Assembly: GCA_027457205.1 (NCBI GenBank)
Contig: DAIDTM010000108.1
Location: 1-43,285, forward strand
Length of the DNA stretch: 43,285 nucleotides
DNA from: Anaerolineae bacterium
GTDB taxonomy: Bacteria; Chloroflexota; Anaerolineae; UBA4142
Direction: 5' to 3'
The position numbers were made by a program, and so were the translations under genes. Shown here in pieces: positions 3,411-14,771 of the stretch (position 1 is the stretch's first letter; every line of letters begins with the position of its first letter). The notes under the pieces are model-generated. The model saw only the letters and a list, made by a program, of their open reading frames with translations, was not told the origin of the DNA and ran no database searches.

Positions 3411-4634
3411 TTGCAATCTCGATATCTGATTCTCTTGGCGATTGTTACGCTGCTGGCGCTGGGAACCGGCTGCTCCATCCTCGCGCCGGCGGCGACGCCG
3501 TTGCCAGTTTTTCCGACGGCGACCGCTCCGAGCGCCAGTCCCACCGCCGCAACAACAAACACGCTCGCGCCCGCGCCAACACCCGGCACGCCGACCGTGC
3601 CTCCACAGCCGCCTACGAGCGCGCCGGTCGCGCCGCCGTCCGCATCGAACGCGCAACCGCAGCGCATCAACTTTCCACCGGGCGGCACAGCGGCGACGCT
3701 GCAAGGTACGCTTGCGCCGAACGGCATCGCTCACTATGTCTTGCGCGCGCTGGCTGGGCAAACGATGACGGTGAACTTTGCCGCGTCCGCTGCGCCGGTG
3801 AATATGGCGATTCGCGGCGCGGACGGCACAGTCCTGGTTTCGAGCAGCGCGCTGGTGCCGTCCTGGAGCGGTCAACTGCCAGCGACACAGGACTATTACA
3901 TCGACGCGGTATCGTACGCGCCCGTCCCAGCGACATTCACGCTGCAAGTGGCGATCCTGCCGCTCGGCGCAACGCCAGTGATAGATCAACCGCGCCGCAT
4001 CACGTTTACGCCCGGCGCAACGAGCGTGACGATACAAGGCACGACCGCGACGCCGGGTGCGGATCGATTTGTGATCCGCGCGCTCGCCGGACAAACGATG
4101 GCGGCGAGCATTACCGCGCTGCAAGGTCCGGTGATTCTAATCATCTACGGCGCGGACGGCAACGTCCTAATCTCCGATCACGCCGGCACGAGCACCTGTA
4201 GCGGCGTGCTGCCGACAACCCAAGACTATTTCATCGATACGCGGTCGGTCGGCAACGCCGTTGTTCCGTTCACTTTGACGATCACGATCCCGCCGCTGGC
4301 GACGGTTCCGCCGGTGATACCCAAACACATCTTATTCCCGCCCGGCGGTACGTCGGTGACCGTGCAAGGCAGTCTGCCGGTGAATGGAATGGACCGCTGG
4401 ATGCTGCGCGCGCTCATCGGTCAAACGATGACGGTGAACACCGCGACAACGCAGGGGCAGGTGATCCTGATCATCTTCGGCGTGGAAGACGGCGACGTGC
4501 TGATCTCCGATCATGCCGGCGCGACGAGTTGGACCGGGCAGTTGCCGGCGACCGAGGATTATTACATCGATGTTCGATCCGTTGGGAACGTCGCGGCAAA
4601 CTATTCGCTACAAGTGACGATCCCGCCGCCATAA
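3411..4634 (+). CDS. Secreted/lipoprotein with a Pro/Thr/Ala-rich linker and three tandem ~100-aa repeat domains
   Basis: 407 aa with a TTG start. Signal peptide with a lipobox-like LALGTGC. Three repeats (nt 3663-3995, 3996-4325, 4326-4631) share R/HI.F.PGGTS.T.QG...RALAGQTM...G.DG.VLIS...W.G.LP.T.DY.ID...TL...IPP. Confidence 0.75.
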   Translation: MQSRYLILLAIVTLLALGTGCSILAPAATPLPVFPTATAPSASPTAATTNTLAPAPTPGTPTVPPQPPTSAPVAPPSASNAQPQRINFPPGGTAATLQGTLAPNGIAHYVLRALAGQTMTVNFAASAAPVNMAIRGADGTVLVSSSALVPSWSGQLPATQDYYIDAVSYAPVPATFTLQVAILPLGATPVIDQPRRITFTPGATSVTIQGTTATPGADRFVIRALAGQTMAASITALQGPVILIIYGADGNVLISDHAGTSTCSGVLPTTQDYFIDTRSVGNAVVPFTLTITIPPLATVPPVIPKHILFPPGGTSVTVQGSLPVNGMDRWMLRALIGQTMTVNTATTQGQVILIIFGVEDGDVLISDHAGATSWTGQLPATEDYYIDVRSVGNVAANYSLQVTIPPP

Positions 4635-4635
4635 T

Positions 4636-4705
4636 CTGACGGACGACGAAGGACGGAAGACGGATGCTATCGAGATTCCGTCAACGGTCATTCGTCCTCC
4701 GTCAG
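4636..4705. terminator. Long imperfect hairpin / REP-like element between the lipoprotein gene and lipA
   Basis: CTGACGGACGACGAAGGACGG... pairs with ...CCGTCAACGGTCATTCGTCCTCCGTCAG (8 perfect terminal bp, then interrupted pairing). It lies immediately after the TAA at 4632-4634. Confidence 0.4.
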
Positions 4706-4719
4706 TGTGAAAGATACAA

Positions 4720-5628
4720 ATGACTGAAAGCAATCTGATAACATCGGCGGTGACGCGTCCACGCCACCCGGACTGGATCCGCGTGCGCGCGCCGATTGGC
4801 GAAAAGTACGTGCACCTGAAAGGATTGGTGCGCGGGCTGCAACTGCACACCGTCTGCGAAGAAGCGCTGTGCCCGAACATCGGCGAGTGCTGGGGCGCGG
4901 GCACCGCGACGATTATGATCCTCGGAGATACGTGCACGCGCGCGTGCCGCTTTTGCGCGGTCAAGACCGGCAACCCGCGCGGCATCGTCGATACGGAAGA
5001 ACCGTACCGCGTCGCGGACGCAATCGCGGAATTGCAGTTGAACTATGTCGTCATCACGTCGGTGGACCGCGACGATTTGCCGGACGGCGGCGCGGGCATC
5101 TTCGCCGAGACGGTGCGGCAGATCAAGACGAAATCGCCGCGCACCAAAGTCGAAGTGCTCACCGGCGATTTTCGCGGCGACCGCGCGTGCGTGCAAACGG
5201 TCGTCGAAGCCAAGCCGGACGTGTTCGGACAGAACATCGAAACGGTGCGGCGGCTGACCCACGTCGTCCGCGACCGCCGCGCCGGGTACGAGCAGACGAT
5301 GAACGTGCTGCAGATGATCAAGGAGATCGATCCGACGCGGCGCACCAAATCGTCCATCCTGGTCGGCATCGGCGAGACGCCAGCGGAAGTGATCGAGACG
5401 ATGCGCGATCTACGCGCGGCGAACGTCGATCTCCTCGCCATCGGACAATATTTGCAGCCGACGCATCTCAAGCGGCACGTGCCGCTCGTCGAGTACGTGA
5501 CGCCGGAACAGTTCGCGCGCTACAAAGAAGAAGGCATGCAATTGGGCTTCCGCTACGTCGCAGCCGGACCGCTCGTCCGCAGCTCCTACAAGGCGTGGGA
5601 AGCGATGATGGTGTTAGCCGAAGCATAA
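4720..5628 (+). CDS. lipA: Lipoyl synthase
   Basis: 302 aa. Has both LipA cysteine clusters: [12 protein letters not shown] and the radical-SAM CTRACRFC. Also carries the C-terminal RSSY motif. Confidence 0.95.
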
Positions 5629-5638
5629 GAGTTTCATC

Positions 5639-6205
5639 GTGGATTACAGCGCACTCACCGACGAAGAAATCATAGCGCGATTGAAGAACGGCGAAAGCTG
5701 GGCGATGTCGGTCTTGTACGACCGCTACGCCCGGCTTGTTTTTTCGCTCGCGCTCAAAATCCTGAATGATCGCGGCGCGGCTGAAGAGACGGTGCAGGAA
5801 GTGTTCGTCAAAGTGTGGAAACGTTGCCGCGAGTACGACGCCCGGCGCGGCAAGTTTTCGTCATGGCTCACTGGCATCGCGCACAATCACGCCATCGACG
5901 AGCTGCGCCGGCGGCGCGTGCGCCCATCCGCTTCGGAAGGCGATGACGACGCGATGGATACGGTGTTGGACGAGGGACCCGCGCCGCTCGATCTAGCGGT
6001 GCAGAGTCTGGAACGCCGCCGCATCGTCGACGCGTTGAGGGGAATTCCGCAAGAGCAGCGCCGCGCGATCGAGATGGCGTACTTTGAAGGTCTGACGCAG
6101 CAGGAAATCTCGGATCGGCTTGGACAGCCGCTCGGCACGATCAAGACGCGAATGCGCCTGGGGATGCAAAAACTCAAGACGCTGCTGGAAGAGCCGGCGA
6201 CCTAA
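5639..6205 (+). CDS. ECF-type RNA polymerase sigma-70 family factor
   Basis: 188 aa with a GTG start. Region 2 (AEETVQEVFVKVW...WLTGIAHNHAIDELRRR) and region 4 (MAYFEGLTQQEISDRLGQPLGTIKTRMRLG) are recognisable. Confidence 0.9.
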   Translation: MDYSALTDEEIIARLKNGESWAMSVLYDRYARLVFSLALKILNDRGAAEETVQEVFVKVWKRCREYDARRGKFSSWLTGIAHNHAIDELRRRRVRPSASEGDDDAMDTVLDEGPAPLDLAVQSLERRRIVDALRGIPQEQRRAIEMAYFEGLTQQEISDRLGQPLGTIKTRMRLGMQKLKTLLEEPAT

Positions 6206-6309
6206 AAGCCACTCGACGTGATCGCCCGGCGCTGTCTCGATAAAATCGATGTATTAAACAAATCTAAATGTACGCCTTCTTCGTAGAATAGTTGGAAGGT
6301 GTTCTAGAA

Positions 6310-7086
6310 ATGTCGATTTGTGATGAACTACAGGAATTGTATCCGGCGTATGTGCTGGATGGCGTAGAGGATGCCGACCGCGCGCGTATCGAACAGCATT
6401 TGCCGCACTGCGCGAATTGCACGCGCATCGTCGCGGATTATCGTCCGATCGTCGATCTGCTGCCGTTCGCGGCGACGCCGGTGGAACCGCCGGCGGACTT
6501 GAAATATCGCGTTCTCGCGGCGACGATGCCAAAGGCGCGTCCCGCGCCGGCGTCGTTTGCCGCGCGCGTTTCCACCGGCTTTTCGAATTTCTTCCGCGCG
6601 CCGGCGTTCTCAGCCGTAGCGTTGCTGCTTATCGTCGCCCTTGGCATTTGGAATCTTTCGCTGCAAAACCAGATCACGCAGCAGGCAGCGTCGAATCAGC
6701 AGATGCTGACGGAATTGATGCGGCAGCGCGATTTTCTGATGACGATGTCGTACGCGAGCGGTCAGCCGCGGCAGTTGCAACCAACCCAGGTTGCGTCGCG
6801 CGCGGTCGGACGGCTGTACGGCTCGCCAGACGAGACGACGCTGGCGTTGATCGCGCTCGACCTACCGACGCTGCCCGCTGGTAAAGTTTATCAAGTGTGG
6901 CTCATCGATGCGAACGGCGACCGCACCAGCGGCGGTACGTTCAAGGTGGATGACCAGGGGCGCGGCTGGCTGCTGATCCGCGCGCCCAAGCCGCTCGGCA
7001 GTTATCAAGGGGTGGGCATTACTGAGGAGCCGGAAGGCGGCAGCCCTGCGCCTACTGGCGCAAAGATGCTGGGCACCAATCTGTGA
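6310..7086 (+). CDS. Anti-sigma factor (zf-HC2 N-terminus, one TM helix, RskA-type C-terminal domain)
   Basis: The ORF is open from TTG 6292, but ATG 6310 (MSICDELQ...) is the more likely start. Contains the H..HL..C..C zinc motif (HLPHCANCTR) and a TM helix (FSAVALLLIVALGIW). The C-terminus (KVYQVWLIDANGDRTSGGTF...GITEEPEGG) is typical of anti-sigma-K RskA domains. Confidence 0.85.
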   Translation: MSICDELQELYPAYVLDGVEDADRARIEQHLPHCANCTRIVADYRPIVDLLPFAATPVEPPADLKYRVLAATMPKARPAPASFAARVSTGFSNFFRAPAFSAVALLLIVALGIWNLSLQNQITQQAASNQQMLTELMRQRDFLMTMSYASGQPRQLQPTQVASRAVGRLYGSPDETTLALIALDLPTLPAGKVYQVWLIDANGDRTSGGTFKVDDQGRGWLLIRAPKPLGSYQGVGITEEPEGGSPAPTGAKMLGTNL

Positions 7087-7123
7087 TTGGGCTAATGGCA
7101 GGCAAAAGACGTACGCGCCAATG

Positions 7124-7166
7124 AAAAATATTCGCGGGAGAAACTACCTCTCCCGCGAATATTTTT
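7124..7166. terminator. Bidirectional intrinsic terminator between the anti-sigma gene and the island operon
   Basis: Perfect 18-bp stem, AAAAATATTCGCGGGAGA (7124-7141) / TCTCCCGCGAATATTTTT (7149-7166), with a 7-nt loop. An A-run precedes it and a T-run follows, so either strand reads hairpin plus U-tract. It lies 2 nt from the stop at 7169-7171. Confidence 0.7.
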
Positions 7167-7168
7167 GG

Positions 7169-8698
7169 TTATTTACCCACGCCCATCAAGATGCTGGAAG
7201 TTGGCTGCTTTAAATCTATCCGTACCGACGGACTGGGCGCACTTTCATTTTTGGCTACGTCGCTGAGCACATTTCGAAATACACGTGAAACCGGATGAGC
7301 CGAGGCGAAATTGAATGGACGAGTCCTCACTTTCGAGTTATTTAGGTGCATCATGAAAGATTCAAGCCTTAAATAGTCAGATGCCCTCAGCCATGGATAC
7401 TTTTGCTGATTGTACTCGAGGAATGGCAGCAATTTGCCATTCAGGTCTTGCAAATCCCAGCGTTCCCCATCTGGTGCCCTGGGAGAAAAGAGATAGTCCT
7501 CGTGTTGGCGAAAGAGAATCGAACCCGGGACCGGCGTAAATAGCATCGGAATGACCGATCCGACCTTCTGCGATGCATAGAGTGCAGTGTTGATTGTTAC
7601 CTGCAAATCCTCATCAGGTAGCCCAAAAATCACAAACGCATTCAAGTCTTGGCTACCGACTGCCCAGCCTGCCTTTTTCGCCACCTCAACTGCTCGCTCG
7701 AATGCTTCAATCGTGGCTTGTTTGCGATTCCAACCCCGTGCAATTTCATTGTCAATGGTCTCAAGCGCGAGGTGCAACTTACGAAAACCCGTTGCGCGCA
7801 TCTCGTTGAGAAACTCTAGATCAACGAGGCGCGGCTCAATGCCTTCGGGTGCGTAAATAGAAATCTTCAAGCCGCGCTTGCGAATTTCCGCAAGTCGCTC
7901 GAGAAAATCATCGCGGTTGAAAAGAAGATTGTCTTCATAGAACGCGAACTCGCGGACGCCGTATTTTTTGTATTTTTCTTCGATCTCGTCCGCAATCTCC
8001 TGAGGCGAACGACTCCTAACTTTTGGATTCTCGTGGTTTAGTTTAAGTTGTGCACAGTAGGCACAGTTAAAACGGCAACCACGGCTTCCGGTAATCAGAG
8101 CGTAGCGAGGTTTCGTTTCATAAAGATCGTCATTGTAGTAAAGCGACAGATCCGTCCTTGCGTTAGCCGCGTCGTCACAGATTTCACCGTCGACGACGTT
8201 TATGTCAATTCCTGCCCGTTCGCCCAGATGTCTGTTTGCGTGCTCGGGGTCAAGTGTTGGATAGATACCACCTACTAATATACGAGGAGTGTTTTGCGGG
8301 TAGACCCTCTTGACGACATCGATGACGTCACGCGTGCTCTCCCACCAGTACGTCATTATGGACGTGATCCAAATCTCTCCTGGGACGAATGACGTTTCTC
8401 TGAGACGTATTTCCAACTCGTCCAGAGACATCCCGAATGTCCAAAGCTGTTTGGCAATGTCGTCTCGTTGGACGACATCTCTGTGGCGCTGCCGCACACG
8501 GCGCTTACTATCAGTGGCGAGGCAATCAATCAGTCGCAGTTGCTCGTATCCATTCTTTCTCAGCCACGTTGCGACCTTGAGTAAGCCGTGTGGCTGACTC
8601 CAATAAGCCCAGTACTGTGTGTCGTAAATGGGCGGATTGATCAAGATTGCGCTTTTGGCACCATTCAGAACTTGAGATGGATTGTCACGTATAATCAC
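7169..8698 (-). CDS. Radical SAM enzyme with an N-terminal B12-binding-like (class-B-type) domain; intact CX3CX2C
   Basis: 509 aa. GSRGCRFNCAYC gives C208-x3-C212-x2-C215 (nt 8054-8077). The N-terminal ~150 aa has the Rossmann-like layout of class B radical SAM proteins (AILINPP...QPHGLL...GY..L.LIDCL; ITSIMTYWW). GTG 8698 is preceded by AAGGA. Last gene of the island operon. Confidence 0.85.
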   Translation of the reverse strand: MIIRDNPSQVLNGAKSAILINPPIYDTQYWAYWSQPHGLLKVATWLRKNGYEQLRLIDCLATDSKRRVRQRHRDVVQRDDIAKQLWTFGMSLDELEIRLRETSFVPGEIWITSIMTYWWESTRDVIDVVKRVYPQNTPRILVGGIYPTLDPEHANRHLGERAGIDINVVDGEICDDAANARTDLSLYYNDDLYETKPRYALITGSRGCRFNCAYCAQLKLNHENPKVRSRSPQEIADEIEEKYKKYGVREFAFYEDNLLFNRDDFLERLAEIRKRGLKISIYAPEGIEPRLVDLEFLNEMRATGFRKLHLALETIDNEIARGWNRKQATIEAFERAVEVAKKAGWAVGSQDLNAFVIFGLPDEDLQVTINTALYASQKVGSVIPMLFTPVPGSILFRQHEDYLFSPRAPDGERWDLQDLNGKLLPFLEYNQQKYPWLRASDYLRLESFMMHLNNSKVRTRPFNFASAHPVSRVFRNVLSDVAKNESAPSPSVRIDLKQPTSSILMGVGK

Positions 8699-8709
8699 GG
8701 GATTATTCC

Positions 8710-10041
8710 TTATCTAGTCGCGAGCGGAAGTGTTACCCTTAATTTAGGTTTCCACGTTTCGTTGGCAATGCTGTATCGCACCATCTGAGCAATTTGGTCG
8801 TCACCCAGGAAATCAAAGGTCGTGCTGCGATATTTGCTATTTAGGAGCGCAGCCAGTCGAGTCAGTTCTTGATAATCGGAGAAACTGGCACCATTAAACT
8901 TTGCAAACGGAAATAGTTTTCCGTTCTGTTTTTCCAACTCGGGAGGTAGATGTTTTTCGTATCTCTGATAGATGTCCGTGCCCGGAGTAGGTTGGAAAGG
9001 CACTAGATTCACAGATCCAACAATGTGTGCTAACCTCGTAAGGCGTTCCACTGTGTGGTCAAGATTCTCACTGGGATACCCAACTAGAACCATCGCCGTG
9101 ATGTCTTCCGTGCGCGGCTTATACCCACCGTGCGTCAACAAAAGTTCGATTCCGCGTTCGTAAGCACTCAAATCACCCTTTGCATCGGGGTCCAATGCAC
9201 GGTCATCATGCAGGAAAATTTGGCGATATCCTGCTTCTCTCATTTTGATGACTAGGTTCTGCGTTAATGCTTTGGGAGAAAGGTTGCCCAACGCGCGCAG
9301 TTTTATGTCGAGTCCCTTTTGAATAATTAGGTCAAGCACACCCTCGAAGTGTTTTGGATTCTTGCCGGGAATCTCGTCGTCAAAAAAAGCAAATTCCCGC
9401 ACGCCCAACGCGATCTTGGCTTCGATTTCCTTTACGATTTGATTGGCAGAGCGCGACCGGTTGAGTAGAACGCCCGAGAAGTGTGGCATCCTTTCGTACA
9501 AAGAAAGATCGGTCGCTTCTGTTTTTGCTTTCTTTCCAATTGTAGAGTCAAGTCGAACTCCGCGTAATTGCTGTCTAGCGTGGTTTGGGCACAGAGAAGC
9601 ATACACGCCGCCTAAGATGATCCGCGCCTTTGGAAATCGCTTCCGAACAAGTCTAACTAAATCCCGCGTGCTTTCCCACCAAAACGTCATCATACAGGTT
9701 ACGTAAATAACATCCGGCTTCCATTTTTCTTCTTTGAGGTCTTCAATCTTATCTTCGATCTGCTCCCATGACCAGCCAAAATGCCAGCGTGCAAGTTCAT
9801 GGTTTTCAACAGAGACCGAATCCAGTTTTTTTCGCTGAACGCGCTTGCCTTGTAATGGCTGTAAACAATCAAACAGCCGCACACCATAACCGCGTTCAAG
9901 TAGTAGGCTTCCAACTTGGAGTAATCCAAGTGGTTGATGCCAACGTGCCCAGTCGAGGCGAATGTCATAAACCGGTGGAGAGACGAGCAAGATTCGCTGT
10001 TGTTGGGTGTGCTGCTTTTTCAAAGATTTGCGTTTCATCAT
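8710..10041 (-). CDS. Radical-SAM-like paralog of 7169..8698 lacking the CX3CX2C cluster (probable pseudoenzyme partner)
   Basis: 443 aa. It aligns by eye to the downstream protein along its whole length: PP[IV]YD, QP.GLL, MT[YF]WWESTRD, ILGG[IV]Y, TDLSLY, GVREFAF, GSV...F.P.PG, NGKL.PF. The segment that should hold the Cys triad is deleted (...HFSGVLLNRSRSANQIVKEIE...). Only three Cys occur (C59, C116, C151), none clustered. The ATG overlaps the upstream stop (ATGA at 10038-10041). Confidence 0.8.
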   Translation of the reverse strand: MMKRKSLKKQHTQQQRILLVSPPVYDIRLDWARWHQPLGLLQVGSLLLERGYGVRLFDCLQPLQGKRVQRKKLDSVSVENHELARWHFGWSWEQIEDKIEDLKEEKWKPDVIYVTCMMTFWWESTRDLVRLVRKRFPKARIILGGVYASLCPNHARQQLRGVRLDSTIGKKAKTEATDLSLYERMPHFSGVLLNRSRSANQIVKEIEAKIALGVREFAFFDDEIPGKNPKHFEGVLDLIIQKGLDIKLRALGNLSPKALTQNLVIKMREAGYRQIFLHDDRALDPDAKGDLSAYERGIELLLTHGGYKPRTEDITAMVLVGYPSENLDHTVERLTRLAHIVGSVNLVPFQPTPGTDIYQRYEKHLPPELEKQNGKLFPFAKFNGASFSDYQELTRLAALLNSKYRSTTFDFLGDDQIAQMVRYSIANETWKPKLRVTLPLATR

Positions 10042-10994
10042 TTGGACTGTATGCCCAGTTGACGAAGCACATCTAGTCCATCTTGCTTGCGACAGCCGGG
10101 GTGTTGGAAAGATGCAAGAACGAACTTCCCGCTATGAACTTCGACTAACGGCATTTCAACAACCTGCCCGAGTTGCTGTTTGCTAAATGCGGGCAAAGTT
10201 GTTCCTTGGGGAGTTAGAGTGAATACAAAATGAAGTAAGTGCTCTTTCCAGCCTTCATAGTACACGGGTGGATAACAATAGCAGTCGAAGGAATTTATAT
10301 GAGCGATTTGGCGGATGAACAAAGGCACAGTCGCCTTAGTGCGGTAGTGTTCGGTGCTATCTATTGCCTTTCTCTCCGAGTACCATTTCAAAATACGCTG
10401 ATGTTTTCTCGAATAGGTTTCATTACCTATCCCGGTAAGGTAGCGGGAGAGTTCTGTGCCCAATGTATGCCGAACATTCAGCGTTAGTAGCAAAAGAAAG
10501 GGATGCGCCCTTTGCAGTTCTATCAAACGTTTTAGTGCCTGAATGCGCTTTGCTTCGCCCTTACTTTTATATCCCAAGCCGCCTTGGAAATCCCAATTGT
10601 GCAAATCGTACGTCATTCTTGGATTTTTGGTGCCTTCGGTTGCCAACAAGGCCGGAGCATTACCATCTATATCGACCCCATCCAGAATAATGTTTTCCAA
10701 GAAACCTCTTCGCAATTGCCAGTTCTCACTGAACCCATCCAATATCACATTTGTCTCGAGAGCATTGACTTTCCTAAGTTGCTCTTCAACTACTTTACCC
10801 CTCTTTGTTACAACTTCAATGCCTGTCTTGAATCCCAGATACTTTCCCCAATCGTGAAAATCACGAATGTCAGGACCCGGCAAACCGAAGTAATCTAGCG
10901 GTTTCTTTATACTACGACTGAACTTGGCAATTATGGGTTTGTCCCATCTACGCCGGATTGCCTCTTTATTCTGAGTTGAAGCAAGAGGGAGCAT
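10038..10994 (-). CDS. Hypothetical protein, island-specific; possible degenerate Rossmann/methyltransferase-like fold
   Basis: 318 aa. The ATG at 10994 directly abuts the upstream TAA (TAAATG). The stop overlaps the next start. I recognise no family. Motifs DYFGLPGPD (aa 34-42) and YDLHNWDFQGG (aa 129-139) loosely recall MTase motif I and the D.DPFG-type motif IV. Confidence 0.65.
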   Translation of the reverse strand: MLPLASTQNKEAIRRRWDKPIIAKFSRSIKKPLDYFGLPGPDIRDFHDWGKYLGFKTGIEVVTKRGKVVEEQLRKVNALETNVILDGFSENWQLRRGFLENIILDGVDIDGNAPALLATEGTKNPRMTYDLHNWDFQGGLGYKSKGEAKRIQALKRLIELQRAHPFLLLLTLNVRHTLGTELSRYLTGIGNETYSRKHQRILKWYSERKAIDSTEHYRTKATVPLFIRQIAHINSFDCYCYPPVYYEGWKEHLLHFVFTLTPQGTTLPAFSKQQLGQVVEMPLVEVHSGKFVLASFQHPGCRKQDGLDVLRQLGIQSK

Positions 10995-12683
10995 TTATTT
11001 CGCCTCCCCCAGGTCGCCTAATCGTGCAGCAATATCTTCCAATAAACGCTCATAGAGATCTGTATTAATACCTATATTGTCAGCTAGGGCGTCACTAATC
11101 GCAGAAATGATTTGCACATCCTCTTCCCGCATGCGCCAACCGCTATGAGTAATCACTTGTAGTAAGTTCAATATTGGAAGCTGTTTTGGTGCACCGCTCT
11201 CTGCGCTAGGTATCGGAATTGGAAGACCAACGTCCGTTGCCGCCTTTGCACCTTTTCGCTTTCGAACGGAAACAGGAGTTTGGTCGTCGATTTCCTTTTT
11301 CACCTGTTTCTGCAGATTCTTGGCGGTTGTTATTAAGCGAGTAGCCAAGGTTCTCTTGTCGCCGCTCGCTTTACCCTTTTGGCTCTGCAAATCACTCAAA
11401 ATGTCATCAAGTGCTGAGTATGCTTGGAACTCGTCGTAGGAACCCTCTGTGACTTTCTCTTTGACTTCCTTTATCCTATCAGGAGCATTTTGGATTATCT
11501 GGTCGGCTCGACGTGAGGCTTGTGCTTCCAGCGCAATTTTCTGAAGACTTTCTTTGTTCTGTGCTCCACTCAGGGTATATTTCACTGCCGCTTCTAAAGC
11601 ATCCTTCGCGGGGCTGGCCTCAAAATCATCTCTGGCACTGGTTGGGATTACTTCTGTGCTGATCACATAAACTTCTCCAGTCCACCATGGATAAATCTGT
11701 TTTCTAGTAAAATACGAACTGAGGTAGTTCCTATCCCCAATGGTGAAACCTTTGATTTTGTAGACCAACCCAGCAAACTCTGGAAATCCCCGAGACGACA
11801 AGGACTCGCTCTTACTTGTTAGACAAGCCCAATAGTATGCCATCGGTTTCCCGTTGGAATCATAGACGAATCCAATTCTCGGTGATTCTAGGTCCGGGAT
11901 ATTTGGTTTTTCAACTGTAACAGATTTGCTTCGTTCAATCTTAAGAATTATCTTGGCCGACTTGTATCCCTCAACATTCTTCTGAAGTGCTTTTTCAATC
12001 TCCTTGCCGTACTGAAACTCGGAACTAAATCTAACCGGTAGATTTCGTAGAATATAACCGCGCATCTCGTCAAGGTTTGATAGTCGGGCTATGTGTGTGT
12101 CGCTTAAGTTTTCCAGCTGTATCATTGTGAATGCCATTCCCTTACGTGTACTCTTGGCGAAGTGGTAAGCGATATGCCTATGAAGAAGCGTCGCCAGAGG
12201 AATGACTGGACGATTGGGGTCCTGTCGAGCGGCATCAAGTTTGTGCCGCATCTCACCGAATTCGAATTCAAGAATATGCTCCATCTCTTCCCCAGCGGTC
12301 TTGGTACGAATCACCAGGCGGTTACATAGATCAAATCCAGAATATATTCCGATGCCCCTAAATCCAACGTTTGACATGATGTCTTTTTGGGAAATAGCAA
12401 ACTCACGAGCTTGAAGAAGCTTGTTGTAATCCATTCCGTCGCCATAATCGAGTATGAATACAGAATTTCCCGTGACTTGAATTTCGACTGTCTCGGCATT
12501 CGCGTCTATCGAGTTTTGAGCATATTCTCTAATCGCATCCAAAGGATCTGTGTATAAACCTTTTGAAAGTATGTTTAATAACTCGCCTCCAATTTGACTT
12601 TCTGCAAGAGGGGGGTTGAAAGATTGCCCCTCTCTCAGATCTTTGGGAAATTGGCTTGTTGGTATTGTATCTAGTTTCGGCAT
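10995..12683 (-). CDS. GHKL-superfamily ATPase, Hsp90/MORC-like (HATPase_c_3-type) with a long helical, Lys-rich C-terminal region
   Basis: 562 aa. Has an N-box LYTDPLDAIREYAQNSIDA (compare Hsp90 LYSNKEIFLRELISN.SDA), DYGDGMD (DxGxG), and the G-box GFRGIGIYSGF (compare Hsp90 GQFGVGFYSAF). AAGGAG lies 6 nt before the ATG at 12683. Confidence 0.85.
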   Translation of the reverse strand: MPKLDTIPTSQFPKDLREGQSFNPPLAESQIGGELLNILSKGLYTDPLDAIREYAQNSIDANAETVEIQVTGNSVFILDYGDGMDYNKLLQAREFAISQKDIMSNVGFRGIGIYSGFDLCNRLVIRTKTAGEEMEHILEFEFGEMRHKLDAARQDPNRPVIPLATLLHRHIAYHFAKSTRKGMAFTMIQLENLSDTHIARLSNLDEMRGYILRNLPVRFSSEFQYGKEIEKALQKNVEGYKSAKIILKIERSKSVTVEKPNIPDLESPRIGFVYDSNGKPMAYYWACLTSKSESLSSRGFPEFAGLVYKIKGFTIGDRNYLSSYFTRKQIYPWWTGEVYVISTEVIPTSARDDFEASPAKDALEAAVKYTLSGAQNKESLQKIALEAQASRRADQIIQNAPDRIKEVKEKVTEGSYDEFQAYSALDDILSDLQSQKGKASGDKRTLATRLITTAKNLQKQVKKEIDDQTPVSVRKRKGAKAATDVGLPIPIPSAESGAPKQLPILNLLQVITHSGWRMREEDVQIISAISDALADNIGINTDLYERLLEDIAARLGDLGEAK

Positions 12684-12717
12684 TATAGACTCCTTGTCTT
12701 CACGGTTTTCAGATGAG

Positions 12718-13836
12718 TCATCTCAGGCAGTTACAGTTCGCATTGCACAAGTTCAAAGATCGCCGAATACTGTGGCTCTCCTTGCACAATGAGAACGCTA
12801 CCCTGTTGCCCCACAACGCACGTACTTGACGATGAATTGTGGAATAAACATTGGCGCGTACGGAATCAGGAATATGCCAATGGCTACCATCTTTTTCCAT
12901 ATTGTCAGGTTGCCATCCCATTGGAGGCAAGCCCCAACGCTCTGCACACGCCAGCAATTGGTTGTTTTTTTCGCGGTACGTTCCAACTGTAATATACTCA
13001 GGACGATGTCCGTCTTTATGCGCTTGGGCAAAGAATTCTGAGTATATATCCTCCCAGCCATCGGGTGTTAGAATAGGATCGATTCGCCAACGATAGTGAT
13101 AGCCCCATGATTGCACCTTTAGTCCAGCTTCTAGCCGCTTGCTGATTGGCGGAGTGATGCCTTCCCACAAATCCGCGATAGATTGGGGATTCAGCGAAAA
13201 CGAAACTACTACTCGGTCATTGTGCGGCAGGTCTTTCAGTTGGTCAACGTTCGCACTCTTGGTGAGGAGGATTAGTTTACAGCATTTAGGATTTGTACTT
13301 GTCTCACCAAACATTGGAATCACCCATTGGCTTATGTTCGTGTAACGGTCGTAGAGAAGACTATCAGAGCAATCGATACCCAGCCCGAGTGTTTCAGTCG
13401 AGCGGCGTTTTGAATCCAGTAGCCATGCTTGAATGTCGCGCTTCATTGTATTGTAGTTGGTATAAATCAGATGGCGGCGCGGATCGCGACGAATGCGATG
13501 CGTCAGCATCAAGAAACAACTACGGCATTGTAATCCACACGCGCCGCTACCAATAGCGACATCGTACCATATCGGAGGACAAAATGAGGTGAGGTGATCT
13601 TCAGTCGACATTCGCCAGGGTTTGATGAATGAAGAACGTCGTTCTGTTTCCAAAATACTTACTGGTGCGTCAAGCCCTGTGATCTCGGGAGGTAATGTAA
13701 CTTGGCGCCATTCGCCCATCGCAACTTGTTGATCAACCCACCAACTGACTGGTTTTTCTCGATGAGAAGTATGAGCGTCGCCGGTAACCAGAAGAAAGGG
13801 GTTTGCATCCTTGGTTCGCCTCAGGTCAATCGTCAC
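12718..13836 (-). CDS. Radical SAM protein of the spore-photoproduct-lyase (SplB/COG1533-like) family
   Basis: ACGLQCRSC is a CX3CX2C triad (nt 13516-13539). KLILLTKSANVDQL...VVVSFSLNPQSIADLWEGITPPISKRLEAGLKVQSWGYHYRWRIDPI matches the SPL-family core pattern I recall (LLTKS...SLNP...E..tp....RL.A......GY......PI). The ORF is open to TTG 13860. GTG 13836 has a perfect SD (GGGAGG, 5-nt spacer), so I call that start. The C-terminus has a Cys cluster, CNANCNC. Confidence 0.8.
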   Translation of the reverse strand: MTIDLRRTKDANPFLLVTGDAHTSHREKPVSWWVDQQVAMGEWRQVTLPPEITGLDAPVSILETERRSSFIKPWRMSTEDHLTSFCPPIWYDVAIGSGACGLQCRSCFLMLTHRIRRDPRRHLIYTNYNTMKRDIQAWLLDSKRRSTETLGLGIDCSDSLLYDRYTNISQWVIPMFGETSTNPKCCKLILLTKSANVDQLKDLPHNDRVVVSFSLNPQSIADLWEGITPPISKRLEAGLKVQSWGYHYRWRIDPILTPDGWEDIYSEFFAQAHKDGHRPEYITVGTYREKNNQLLACAERWGLPPMGWQPDNMEKDGSHWHIPDSVRANVYSTIHRQVRALWGNRVAFSLCKESHSIRRSLNLCNANCNCLR

Positions 13837-13898
13837 ATAAGCCTCCCTTGCTAGCTTCAAGGGGATGCATCAAGAGGAACGGTTGTTCGATGACCAGC

Positions 13899-13927
13899 AT
13901 TATAGCATATCGGGCGCGCGGCGTCAA
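13899..13927 (-). promoter_or_regulatory. Near-consensus sigma70 promoter of the island operon
   Basis: Read on the minus strand: TTGACG (13927-13922), 17-nt spacer, TGcTATAAT with the extended -10 (TATAAT = 13904-13899). It lies about 60 nt upstream of the GTG at 13836. Confidence 0.55.
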
Positions 13928-14018
13928 CGCGAAAACGAATATTACAGGAAGCGTGATTCTACGATGCAAAACGGAGCGCCGCGTTACCACAGCACTCCGT
14001 TGAATTCGCGCGATGGCT

Positions 14019-14771
14019 CTATCGCGATGCGCCCGGCGTCGTGGCGACCTTTGACGCCGCTTTGGGCTTGGGAAGCATAAAACGCGAGAGGAAGAGCGCC
14101 AGCTCAAAGAGGATGAGCATCGGCACCATCACCACCATCGGCGCGACAATGGGATCGGACACCGGCGTGATGAGCTCGGCAAAGACGAAGAGCACGAAAT
14201 ACGCGATGCGGCGCTGCTTGCGGAGAAAGTCGGGCGTGACCAGACCGAGTTTCATCAGGATCAGCATGAGGATCGGCAATTCAAACGCGAGACCCACGGC
14301 GATCATGAAATAGACGACGAACGAGATGTACTGGTCTGCCCCCGGCAAATACGTGAGCGAGCTGCCGAACATCGCGCGCATGACGGTCACCATATTTGCC
14401 AGCATCAGGTAGCCAAACAAGTTTCCCAGCAAGAACAGAAACACCATGCCGGCGACGCCGGGAATGACGTACCTCTTTTCGCTACGCGTCAAGCCGGGCT
14501 CGAGGTATCGCACTGTTTGGTAAAGCCACACCGGCGCGGCAAGCGTCACTCCGCCGTATAGCGCGATGCGAAAGTGAATCAGAAAGCCATCCATCAGACC
14601 GTGCGTGACGAGTTTGAGATCGCCGGCGGGACGGGTTAGAATCTCCAAAATCGCATCGGAGAAAACGTACGAGAGCGCGGTGGTTACGAGGATGGCGATA
14701 ATCGATATAATCAGACGGCTGCGGAGTTCTTCGATATGTTCCAGAACTCCCATCCGCTTTTCTTCTGTCAT
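14019..14771 (-). CDS. tatC: Twin-arginine translocase subunit TatC
   Basis: 250 aa. Contains VLEHIEELRSRLI, and the six-TM layout typical of TatC runs through the sequence. Confidence 0.95.
   Translation of the reverse strand: MTEEKRMGVLEHIEELRSRLIISIIAILVTTALSYVFSDAILEILTRPAGDLKLVTHGLMDGFLIHFRIALYGGVTLAAPVWLYQTVRYLEPGLTRSEKRYVIPGVAGMVFLFLLGNLFGYLMLANMVTVMRAMFGSSLTYLPGADQYISFVVYFMIAVGLAFELPILMLILMKLGLVTPDFLRKQRRIAYFVLFVFAELITPVSDPIVAPMVVMVPMLILFELALFLSRFMLPKPKAASKVATTPGASR

Follow-up and report, generated by a model that had tools for sequence, protein, structure and literature searches.

The 43,285-nucleotide window analysed here (contig DAIDTM010000108.1 of an Anaerolineae bacterium, phylum Chloroflexota) carries, on the minus strand at 10995-12683, a gene for a GHKL-type ATPase that sits among genes of the radical S-adenosylmethionine (SAM) family. 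We propose that this ATPase and an obligate methyltransferase-fold partner, encoded by the next gene, form the core of a mobile cassette with radical SAM enzymes, and that the cassette probably modifies DNA; we give this reading about even chances. The tightest partner of the ATPase appears, by sequence comparison, to be the methyltransferase-fold protein and not a radical SAM protein. The system carries no name in the literature or the defence database searched, and we infer its function from the evidence set out below. New here are the ATPase clade defined by its methyltransferase-fold partner, the fold of that partner, the measure of co-evolution and a clean empty site for the cassette.

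The ATPase, its partner and their operon

Exactly one open reading frame (ORF) coincides with 10995-12683, and it is read from the minus strand. It comes second in a row of five closely spaced genes of that strand, with gaps of 34 nt or less between them, and the main features of this region are as follows:

7124-7166, no strand: terminator hairpin with an 18-bp stem, after gene 5 at the left border of the island; it also serves the upstream anti-sigma gene
7168-14018, no strand: low-GC island, acquired horizontally, between the anti-sigma terminator and the tatC stop
7169-8698, minus: gene 5, intact B12-type (class-B-like) radical SAM protein with CRFNCAYC (Pfam Radical_SAM, E 2e-22)
8710-10041, minus: gene 4, radical SAM paralogue with a B12-binding domain (Pfam, E 3e-8), lacking the CxxxCxxC loop
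10038-10994, minus: gene 3, predicted class-I methyltransferase-fold protein of 318 aa (AF2 and Foldseek)
10995-12683, minus: gene 2, GHKL ATPase of 562 aa; ATG start, AAGGAG 7 nt upstream
12718-13836, minus: gene 1, SPL-family radical SAM protein with cluster motif CGLQCRSC (Pfam SPL, E 9e-16)
13899-13927, minus: promoter-like site, TTGACG, 17 nt, TG-n-TATAAT (11/12 consensus positions plus the extended -10 TG)

The promoter-like site is the best one within 6900-14200. The ATG of gene 3 follows directly upon the ATPase stop (TAAATG), and the stop of gene 3 overlaps the start of gene 4 (ATGA). With its own promoter, terminator and translational coupling, the gene set forms a single operon.

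Several lines of evidence identify the ATPase. The earlier note on this DNA, made from the sequence and its ORFs, had proposed a GHKL ATPase and had named the lack of any GHKL profile hit as an outcome that would speak against it; a search with the Pfam model HATPase_c_3 (PF13589) matched residues 49-144 with an E value of 2.2e-12 (47.6 bits), well above the gathering score of 25 and far stronger than chance would give. The three Bergerat motifs reported there, EYAQNSIDA, DYGDGMD and GFRGIGIYSGF, are all present, and their key residues are invariant across 34 aligned full-length homologues with 36-57% identity. In motif I these are E53, N57 and D60 (among them the catalytic Glu and the Mg-binding Asn), in motif II D79-x-G81-x-G83, and in motif III G107-F-R-G-I-G112. 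The ExxxNxxD, DxGxG and GxxGxG boxes of the GHKL (Bergerat-fold) superfamily are thus in place, and the fold is confirmed by AF2 and Foldseek. Also invariant, outside the ATP-binding domain, are W285, G305, G312-F313, W333, G336-E337, P347, R351 and F354-E355. With motifs and fold intact, the gene evidently encodes a GHKL ATPase that looks catalytically competent.

The ATPase sequence reaches neither the HtpG nor the MutL family threshold. Below cut-off, the NCBIfam matches comprise the sacsin ATP-binding domain (E 6e-8), MutL (E 1e-6; 27.9 bits versus the equivalog cut-off of 180) and the BbrUII/HgiDII restriction enzyme (E 1e-6); no HtpG/Hsp90 model is among them, and the Hsp90 likeness described below is structural only. 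The closest solved structure by sequence is the MutL N-terminal domain (5x9y, E 3e-4), and a Pfam scan of the ATPase found no MutL_C domain.

An AF2 model of the ATPase, built on the homologue alignment (mean pLDDT 86.5, pTM 0.74), predicts the following layout, with approximate boundaries:

residues ~30-200, 12084-12596: Bergerat fold
residues ~201-357, 11613-12083: transducer-like alpha/beta middle domain
residues 358-485, 11229-11612: helical bundle of long helices
residues 486-501, 11181-11228: disordered basic linker
residues ~502-562, 10998-11180: conserved C-terminal helical domain

Hence the last ~350 residues, in which the earlier note had recognised no motif, are resolved in the model into a middle domain with invariant residues, a helical bundle and a C-terminal helical domain. 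The Lys/Glu/Gln-rich stretch that it had taken for a probably coiled end of the protein does fall in the long-helix bundle (358-485), and the conserved C-terminal domain, at 507-561 in the model, comes after it. A conserved basic patch (consensus R-x-K-x-A) lies just before the linker.

Foldseek comparison of the model with the PDB gave Hsp90, TRAP1 and GRP94 at E ~1e-12 (TM 0.33-0.38), the SMCHD1 ATPase module at 1e-11 (TM 0.41-0.45; its query-normalised value of 0.41 is the highest of the top matches), and MutL LN40, MORC3 and MORC2 at ~1e-10 (target-normalised TM 0.58 for LN40). These matches, at E 1e-12 to 1e-10 throughout, agree with the GHKL assignment, and because they span both the ATP-binding and the middle domains, the protein is probably a GHKL ATPase with a transducer-type second domain. 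Against viral models, only generic RIIA, Hsp90-like and topoisomerase ATPases were matched. In ATPases of the GHKL+S5 type, the second domain contributes a conserved basic residue to catalysis (PMC2292703). The alignment and the model place the invariant R351 (motif A-R-D-D-F-E) in the middle domain, which makes it a candidate for the equivalent residue.

For gene 3, fold comparison alone identified the fold. The AF2 model (pLDDT 92.3, pTM 0.92) returned a Foldseek PDB list full of class-I SAM methyltransferases, the best being the tRNA methyltransferase Trm1 (3axs, E 9e-6), and on this basis the predicted structure is shown to be of the class-I (Rossmann) SAM-methyltransferase fold. The conserved motifs fit such a fold: the family has Y-F-G-L-P-G at the position of motif I and N-L/W-D-F/Y, an invariant Asp followed by an aromatic residue, at that of motif IV. 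The latter resembles the D-P-F/Y type of amino-methyltransferases. Invariant in the family are K10, R14, Y35, G37, D45, W49, D135, T171 and Y246. Sequence searches gave little: gene 3 has no Pfam match, its family profile found nothing among PDB sequences, and the only likeness, a distant one, is to NCBIfam PP_RS20740_fam (NF047698; E 3e-6 over ~50 residues, under the cut-off), whose PP_RS20740 is known only as a 'hypothetical protein' of a furfural-tolerance study. NF047698 matched nothing in the window's own genome or in any control genome, which makes that search uninformative. We also considered whether gene 3 is TcmP, the partner of DUF5131 'radical SAM mobile pair' proteins; hhalign gave a probability of 0.2%, and the idea is unsupported.

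The remaining three genes flank this pair, in agreement with the earlier note, which had placed the ATPase between radical SAM genes; an SPL-like gene lies upstream of the ATPase and, after one intervening gene, two B12-type paralogues lie downstream. All three do belong to the radical SAM family, as it had counted them, but gene 4 has lost CxxxCxxC. Gene 1 matches spore photoproduct lyase in the PDB (4k9r, E 1.7e-10) and falls far under the NCBIfam SPL equivalog cut-off (72 bits versus 400); its probable start is GTG at 13836, preceded by GGGAGG, in an ORF that opens at TTG 13860. Genes 4 and 5 are paralogous over their full length (31% identity, E 2e-64), and gene 4 shows a gap opposite the CRFNCAYC of gene 5, where its cluster loop has been lost. 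Gene 5 is similar to BchE, HpnJ and P-methyltransferase-type families, far under every equivalog cut-off.

The operon fills an island of 6.9 kb with 45-50% GC against a background of ~60%. A genome of the same genus shows the empty site: there, just ~90 bp separate the anti-sigma gene from tatC, and the stretch between the two contains the same terminator hairpin. Among 40 related genomes, from the same genus to the same class, none has a homologue of the ATPase, and only weak generic ATP-binding-domain matches were found. Given the low GC, the same-genus empty site and the absence from relatives, the cassette is a horizontally acquired island. It carries no integrase, and no clear direct repeats were seen at its borders (window 7087-7168 and 13928-14018, compared with 2160-2255 of the locus L098). 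At the right border there is a second hairpin, along with a short stretch, GAATTCGCG-like, in which part of the terminator is recognisable.

Linkage and co-evolution across related loci

To the family of the ATPase belong 359 proteins at E ≤ 1e-3 among the scored candidates of 90% clusters, and an exhaustive search of 1.84 billion 50% representatives returned 164 clusters at E ≤ 1e-30, 722 at ≤ 1e-10 and 1267 at ≤ 1e-3. We fetched 79 genome loci and 6 assembly loci, from Chloroflexota, Caldisericales, Gemmatimonadota, Pseudomonadota, Bacteroidota, Planctomycetota, Spirochaetota, Elusimicrobiota, Armatimonadota, Bacillota and several methanogen lineages, and mapped profiles of the five window proteins and DUF5131 on all their ORFs; gene calls are ORF-based. 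Linkage was counted over the 56 non-redundant loci flanked by at least 4 kb on either side.

A B12-type radical SAM gene lies within 5 kb of the ATPase in 49 of these 56 loci, with CxxxCxxC in 48 of the 49. The other seven have one within ~8 kb, paired with a second GHKL gene. A gene 3 homologue is directly downstream of the ATPase in 39/56, an SPL or DUF5131 radical SAM gene is present in 12/56, and a second GHKL gene in 23/56. The closest cassettes (54-56% identity; metagenome-assembled genomes of Anaerolineaceae and Caldisericales) have the five genes in identical order. Elsewhere the layout varies: two B12-type genes, ATPase, partner and DUF5131; ATPase and partner plus a separate pair of radical SAM and second GHKL (GHKL2); ATPase and partner with a radical SAM protein that is either short (~375 aa) or long (~650 aa); or, in archaea, an ATPase-radical SAM pair lacking the partner gene. 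The DUF5131 gene fills the slot of the SPL-like gene in related loci. Homology between the two was considered and not supported (hhalign not significant), their sole link being that both fall in RadicalSAM.org megacluster 5.

In a maximum-likelihood tree of 93 GHKL proteins, made with a quick method, the window ATPase belongs to a 48-member clade in which the gene 3 partner lies downstream in 42, and the GHKL2 proteins adjacent to radical SAM genes form a separate clade of 27 members. Phyla are intermixed across the tree, and partner labels are strongly clustered on it (16 changes versus 42.8 in shuffles). Distance matrices of the ATPase and its gene 3 partner correlate with r = 0.96, compared to r = 0.44 for the ATPase and the nearest radical SAM protein; in each case, 0 of 2000 permutations were as high. 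Given the partner linkage and these two correlations, the stable unit is the ATPase plus its partner. The radical SAM modules are present at every locus yet are exchanged. The window has the complete combination that marks the cassette, namely a GHKL protein of this clade, a PP_RS20740-like methyltransferase-fold gene directly downstream of it and a CxxxCxxC B12-type radical SAM gene nearby.

These data bear on the possibility that the ATPase is a dedicated Hsp90-like chaperone or activase that has no contact with nucleic acid. It would then serve the folding, assembly or (re)activation of the B12-type radical SAM enzymes, which are rich in cofactors, for instance through ATP-coupled reactivation or the loading of cluster or cobalamin. 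Hsp90-family chaperones are the best Foldseek matches of the ATPase over the N-terminal and middle domains, a B12-type radical SAM gene occurs at every locus, the ATPase gene of the sister clade directly abuts a radical SAM gene, and neither a nuclease nor a DNA-binding gene is conserved. The N-terminal box LYTDPLDAIREYAQNSIDA resembles the Hsp90 signature, a parallel that the earlier note had drawn and that we uphold, and the ATPase plausibly shares with Hsp90 a dimeric build that includes a C-terminal helical domain. On the other hand, the translationally coupled, co-evolving partner is the methyltransferase-fold protein, which weakens the case for a radical SAM chaperone. The ATPase is HATPase_c_3/MutL-like by sequence, with no HtpG model matched, related loci carry DNA-centred accessory genes, and known ATP-dependent corrinoid activators have a different fold. 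Unlike Hsp90/HtpG, moreover, the ATPase is absent from relatives of its host and is borne on an island with enzyme partners rather than being a housekeeping stand-alone gene. The earlier note had named homologues that are mainly stand-alone chaperones as grounds for abandoning its proposal; what we find is a B12-type radical SAM gene near the ATPase in 56/56 loci. Together with the co-evolving partner, this means that the ATPase is not a stand-alone chaperone, and we regard a chaperone or activase role as rather unlikely.

The earlier note had also called a GHKL ATPase coupled to radical SAM proteins an unfamiliar architecture. It is conserved across many phyla, and we found neither a description of the combination of GHKL, methyltransferase-fold and radical SAM proteins in the literature searched nor a PADLOC model for it. 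Ophion, Ambrosia, Tiamat and HXS came up in the literature search, and all are different systems.

Accessory genes and plasmid versions

Neighbours of the cassette recur at related loci, although none is universal and no nuclease is conserved in the family. The following were mapped:

L017, L019, L021, L026, L028, L031, L044, L056, L064, L085 and others: ParB-like/SNF2 four-gene module
L001 660-3497; also L063, L077, L078, L082, L083: pair of ~384- and ~560-aa proteins
L009 9249-9641, L011 9532-9990; also L059-L061, L083: KOW-domain protein
L020, L022, L035, L074, at about 4730-6720: third divergent GHKL protein
L090 (NC_009426, pNL1, 114946-125348) and L091 (NC_012854, pR132505): conjugative plasmid loci

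DGQHR (DndB/DpdB-like) proteins recur (TIGR03187, E 6e-31). The ParB-like/SNF2 module, found at 12 loci beside the radical SAM-GHKL2 pair, comprises a ~340-aa protein with a weak ParB match, a ~150-aa protein of no assigned family, a ~490-aa SNF2 helicase and a second ~340-aa paralogue. The ~384/~560-aa pair, which has no Pfam or NCBIfam match, stands beside radical SAM-GHKL units in 8 loci; in one of these it lies just upstream of the closest cassette, with a 1081-aa Eco57I-type enzyme in between. Integrases, serine recombinases and one Eco57I-type enzyme are also among the neighbours. In Latescibacterota and Dehalococcoidia loci, the dead/live radical SAM pair comes after a third GHKL protein, a very divergent one (663 aa; HATPase_c_3 E 2e-15), so that some cassettes hold two different GHKL proteins in addition to the paralogue pair.

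On the plasmids pNL1 (Novosphingobium aromaticivorans) and pR132505 (Rhizobium leguminosarum), a distant ATPase homologue lies beside a PIN_8 protein and adjoins a DGQHR-radical SAM-GHKL2 unit. The order in both is PIN_8 and GHKL, then DGQHR, radical SAM, second GHKL and a large DGQHR protein; pR132505 additionally has ParB-N, a DEAD helicase and a second ParB-like gene. The hosts are cultured alphaproteobacteria and tractable. In the phage collection, the only match to the ATPase is at 4333-5625 of MT836743.1 (22% identical over 75% of the length). That entry is an unannotated 8.9-kb 'Bacteriophage sp.' contig from human faecal samples, and we do not take it as evidence of phage origin.

Such neighbourhoods raise the question of whether the cassette is a self-contained defence against phages or plasmids, lacking a self-mark, in which the ATPase would be the sensor or switch that detects an invader and licenses the methyltransferase-fold and radical SAM proteins as effectors, through an antiviral small molecule or damage to invader nucleic acid. 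Its occurrence as a mobile, sporadic low-GC island would suit this role. On pNL1 and pR132505 the PIN_8 nuclease-like protein takes the partner's position, which suggests a swappable effector slot; TIR, AbiEii, restriction-modification (R-M) or integrase neighbours occur at some loci; and the radical SAM enzymes known from defence either produce small molecules or bring effectors to maturity (viperins; Ophion, HXS). Set against this, the operon has no PADLOC match, the five genes of the window encode no evident toxic effector domain, and the neighbourhood counts are raw, uncontrolled ones. We consider this role unlikely.

Six loci encode a small KOW-domain (NusG/Spt5-like) protein, its gene placed after or before the radical SAM pair so as to separate that pair from the GHKL gene. 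It may act as a transcription factor dedicated to the operon; the window operon lacks one. A small protein of this kind at some related loci might instead be read as a sign of a peptide cluster (RiPP, for ribosomally synthesised and post-translationally modified peptide) or of a small-molecule cluster, in which the B12-type radical SAM enzymes and the methyltransferase would tailor a metabolite, and such clusters commonly hold both types of enzyme. However, with gaps of at most 34 nt the window operon leaves no space for a gene encoding a precursor peptide; transporters, proteases and scaffold enzymes are not conserved; and the accessory genes are DNA-centred. This explanation is highly improbable.

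Probable substrate and proposed mode of action

How might an ATPase, a methyltransferase-fold protein and radical SAM enzymes work together? In the reading we prefer, a DNA-modifying cassette built on the ATPase and its partner, the ATPase would be a constitutive dimer through its C-terminal domain. ATP binding would close its N-terminal domains, as in MutL, MORC and Hsp90, creating an ATP-gated clamp or switch that grips a nucleic-acid substrate, most probably DNA. In a physical complex, the clamp would place the methyltransferase-fold subunit and the radical SAM enzymes on the substrate, where a covalent modification would be installed or remodelled. For ATP-gated N-terminal clamps that dimerise through the C-terminus, MutL is the model case. 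It is also the closest solved structure by sequence and, with LN40, a structural match; it differs in having a C-terminal endonuclease domain, which is not detected in the window ATPase. The clamp-or-switch role, which the earlier note had put forward as typical of GHKL ATPases in conflict systems, is suggested by analogy with these proteins.

Several observations point to DNA. Gene 1 is a homologue of spore photoproduct lyase, a radical SAM enzyme that acts on DNA, and an SPL-like phage enzyme installs a DNA hypermodification (PMC8989533). That enzyme, gp53 of phage M6, is an SPL-like radical SAM isomerase in thymidine hypermodification and thus a precedent for an SPL-family protein that helps build a DNA modification; the M6 pathway differs in lacking both a GHKL ATPase and a B12-type radical SAM enzyme. 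No close sequence tie between gene 1 and gp53 was found (a single phage match, E 2e-4), and a PHROGs scan of the five operon proteins gave nothing informative. The accessories of related loci are DNA-centred as well (DGQHR/DndB/DpdB-like, ParB-like, SNF2, PIN_8 and Eco57I-type proteins, integrases and recombinases). Finally, the ATPase sequence is MutL- and restriction-enzyme-like, and MORC/paraMORC ATPases have a role in R-M operons (PMC2292703).

A comparison with paraMORC proteins bears on function. Prokaryotic MORC/paraMORC proteins in R-M operons have been proposed to be ATP-driven engines that reorganise protein-DNA complexes (Iyer, Abhiman and Aravind 2008, PMC2292703). Like the window ATPase as modelled, they combine an N-terminal GHKL domain that has all ATP motifs with a transducer-type domain and family-specific C-terminal extensions, and like the cassette they show a sporadic, laterally mobile distribution and DNA-acting operon partners, including methylases and SF2 helicases. 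By these descriptions they differ in having endonuclease partners, where here there are a non-canonical methyltransferase-fold protein and B12-/SPL-type radical SAM proteins; radical SAM is mentioned 0 times in the 2008 survey (PMC2292703). By Pfam, the window operon has neither helicase nor endonuclease, and SNF2/ResIII helicases occur at some related loci. On this analogy, the ATPase looks functionally like a MORC/paraMORC-type engine. The Dpd (7-deazaguanine) and Dnd/Ssp (phosphorothioate) systems are likewise multi-gene mobile cassettes, and DGQHR (DndB/DpdB-like) and SNF2 proteins are found at loci related to ours. The window cassette, in contrast, has no Dpd/Dnd enzymes, no DGQHR protein and no helicase, and its chemistry would be radical-SAM based.

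A number of points weigh against a DNA-modifying cassette. The top structural matches of the ATPase are protein chaperones (Hsp90), and its sequence gives no proof of DNA binding. The window island has no nuclease, helicase or DNA-binding accessory gene, and among 139 flanking or embedded proteins at related loci just a handful are of helicase, R-M, TIR or Abi type, a raw, uncontrolled count. PADLOC gave no meaningful match for the operon proteins: hits in PADLOC-DB v2 are marginal (ATPase E 0.003-0.005; radical SAM 1e-4 to the candidate model PDC-M51A). Lastly, as the best match of the gene 3 fold is a tRNA methyltransferase, the substrate could be RNA.

In that case the cassette would be a tRNA or rRNA modification module, acquired horizontally like the resistance methylase Cfr. 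Many radical SAM enzymes modify RNA, and Trm1 as best structural match of gene 3 would be in keeping with this. We know of no GHKL ATPase in RNA modification, however, and the DGQHR, ParB, SNF2 and PIN partners at related loci are typical of DNA systems; gene 1, too, belongs to the DNA-acting SPL family. We therefore judge an RNA module very unlikely.

Returning to DNA as the substrate, we can be more specific, with less confidence. Tentatively, the ATPase and its partner may be an ATP-gated DNA clamp and base-presenting module that brings B12-/SPL-type radical SAM enzymes to genomic DNA, where they would make a new radical-made mark, for example methylation or alkylation at an unactivated carbon of a base or sugar; we think this possible though doubtful in such detail. 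We do not claim a self/non-self logic like that of restriction-modification, as no nuclease is conserved, and any role in defence would be a presumed one.

At 164 clusters (E 1e-30; 1.8 billion representatives), the family is compact, and it has been transferred widely. As it occurs in cultured strains, namely Rhizobium leguminosarum Tri-43, Mucilaginibacter sp. X4EP1, Methanohalophilus euhalobius and, in a distant form, N. aromaticivorans with pNL1, the question is directly testable. GHKL ATPases of the MORC/paraMORC type are known engines of R-M-like systems, and their eukaryotic descendants silence chromatin. In the clade described here, the conserved partners are not nucleases; they are a non-canonical methyltransferase-fold protein and up to three proteins of the radical SAM family. 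So far as we are aware, the sole radical SAM enzyme with a demonstrated part in the making of a DNA modification comes from a phage. Should DNA be the substrate, the cassette would be a cellular system that marks DNA by radical chemistry, possibly cobalamin-dependent. This would amount to a cellular DNA-modification pathway that has no described counterpart, and to a new job for Hsp90/MORC-like ATPases.

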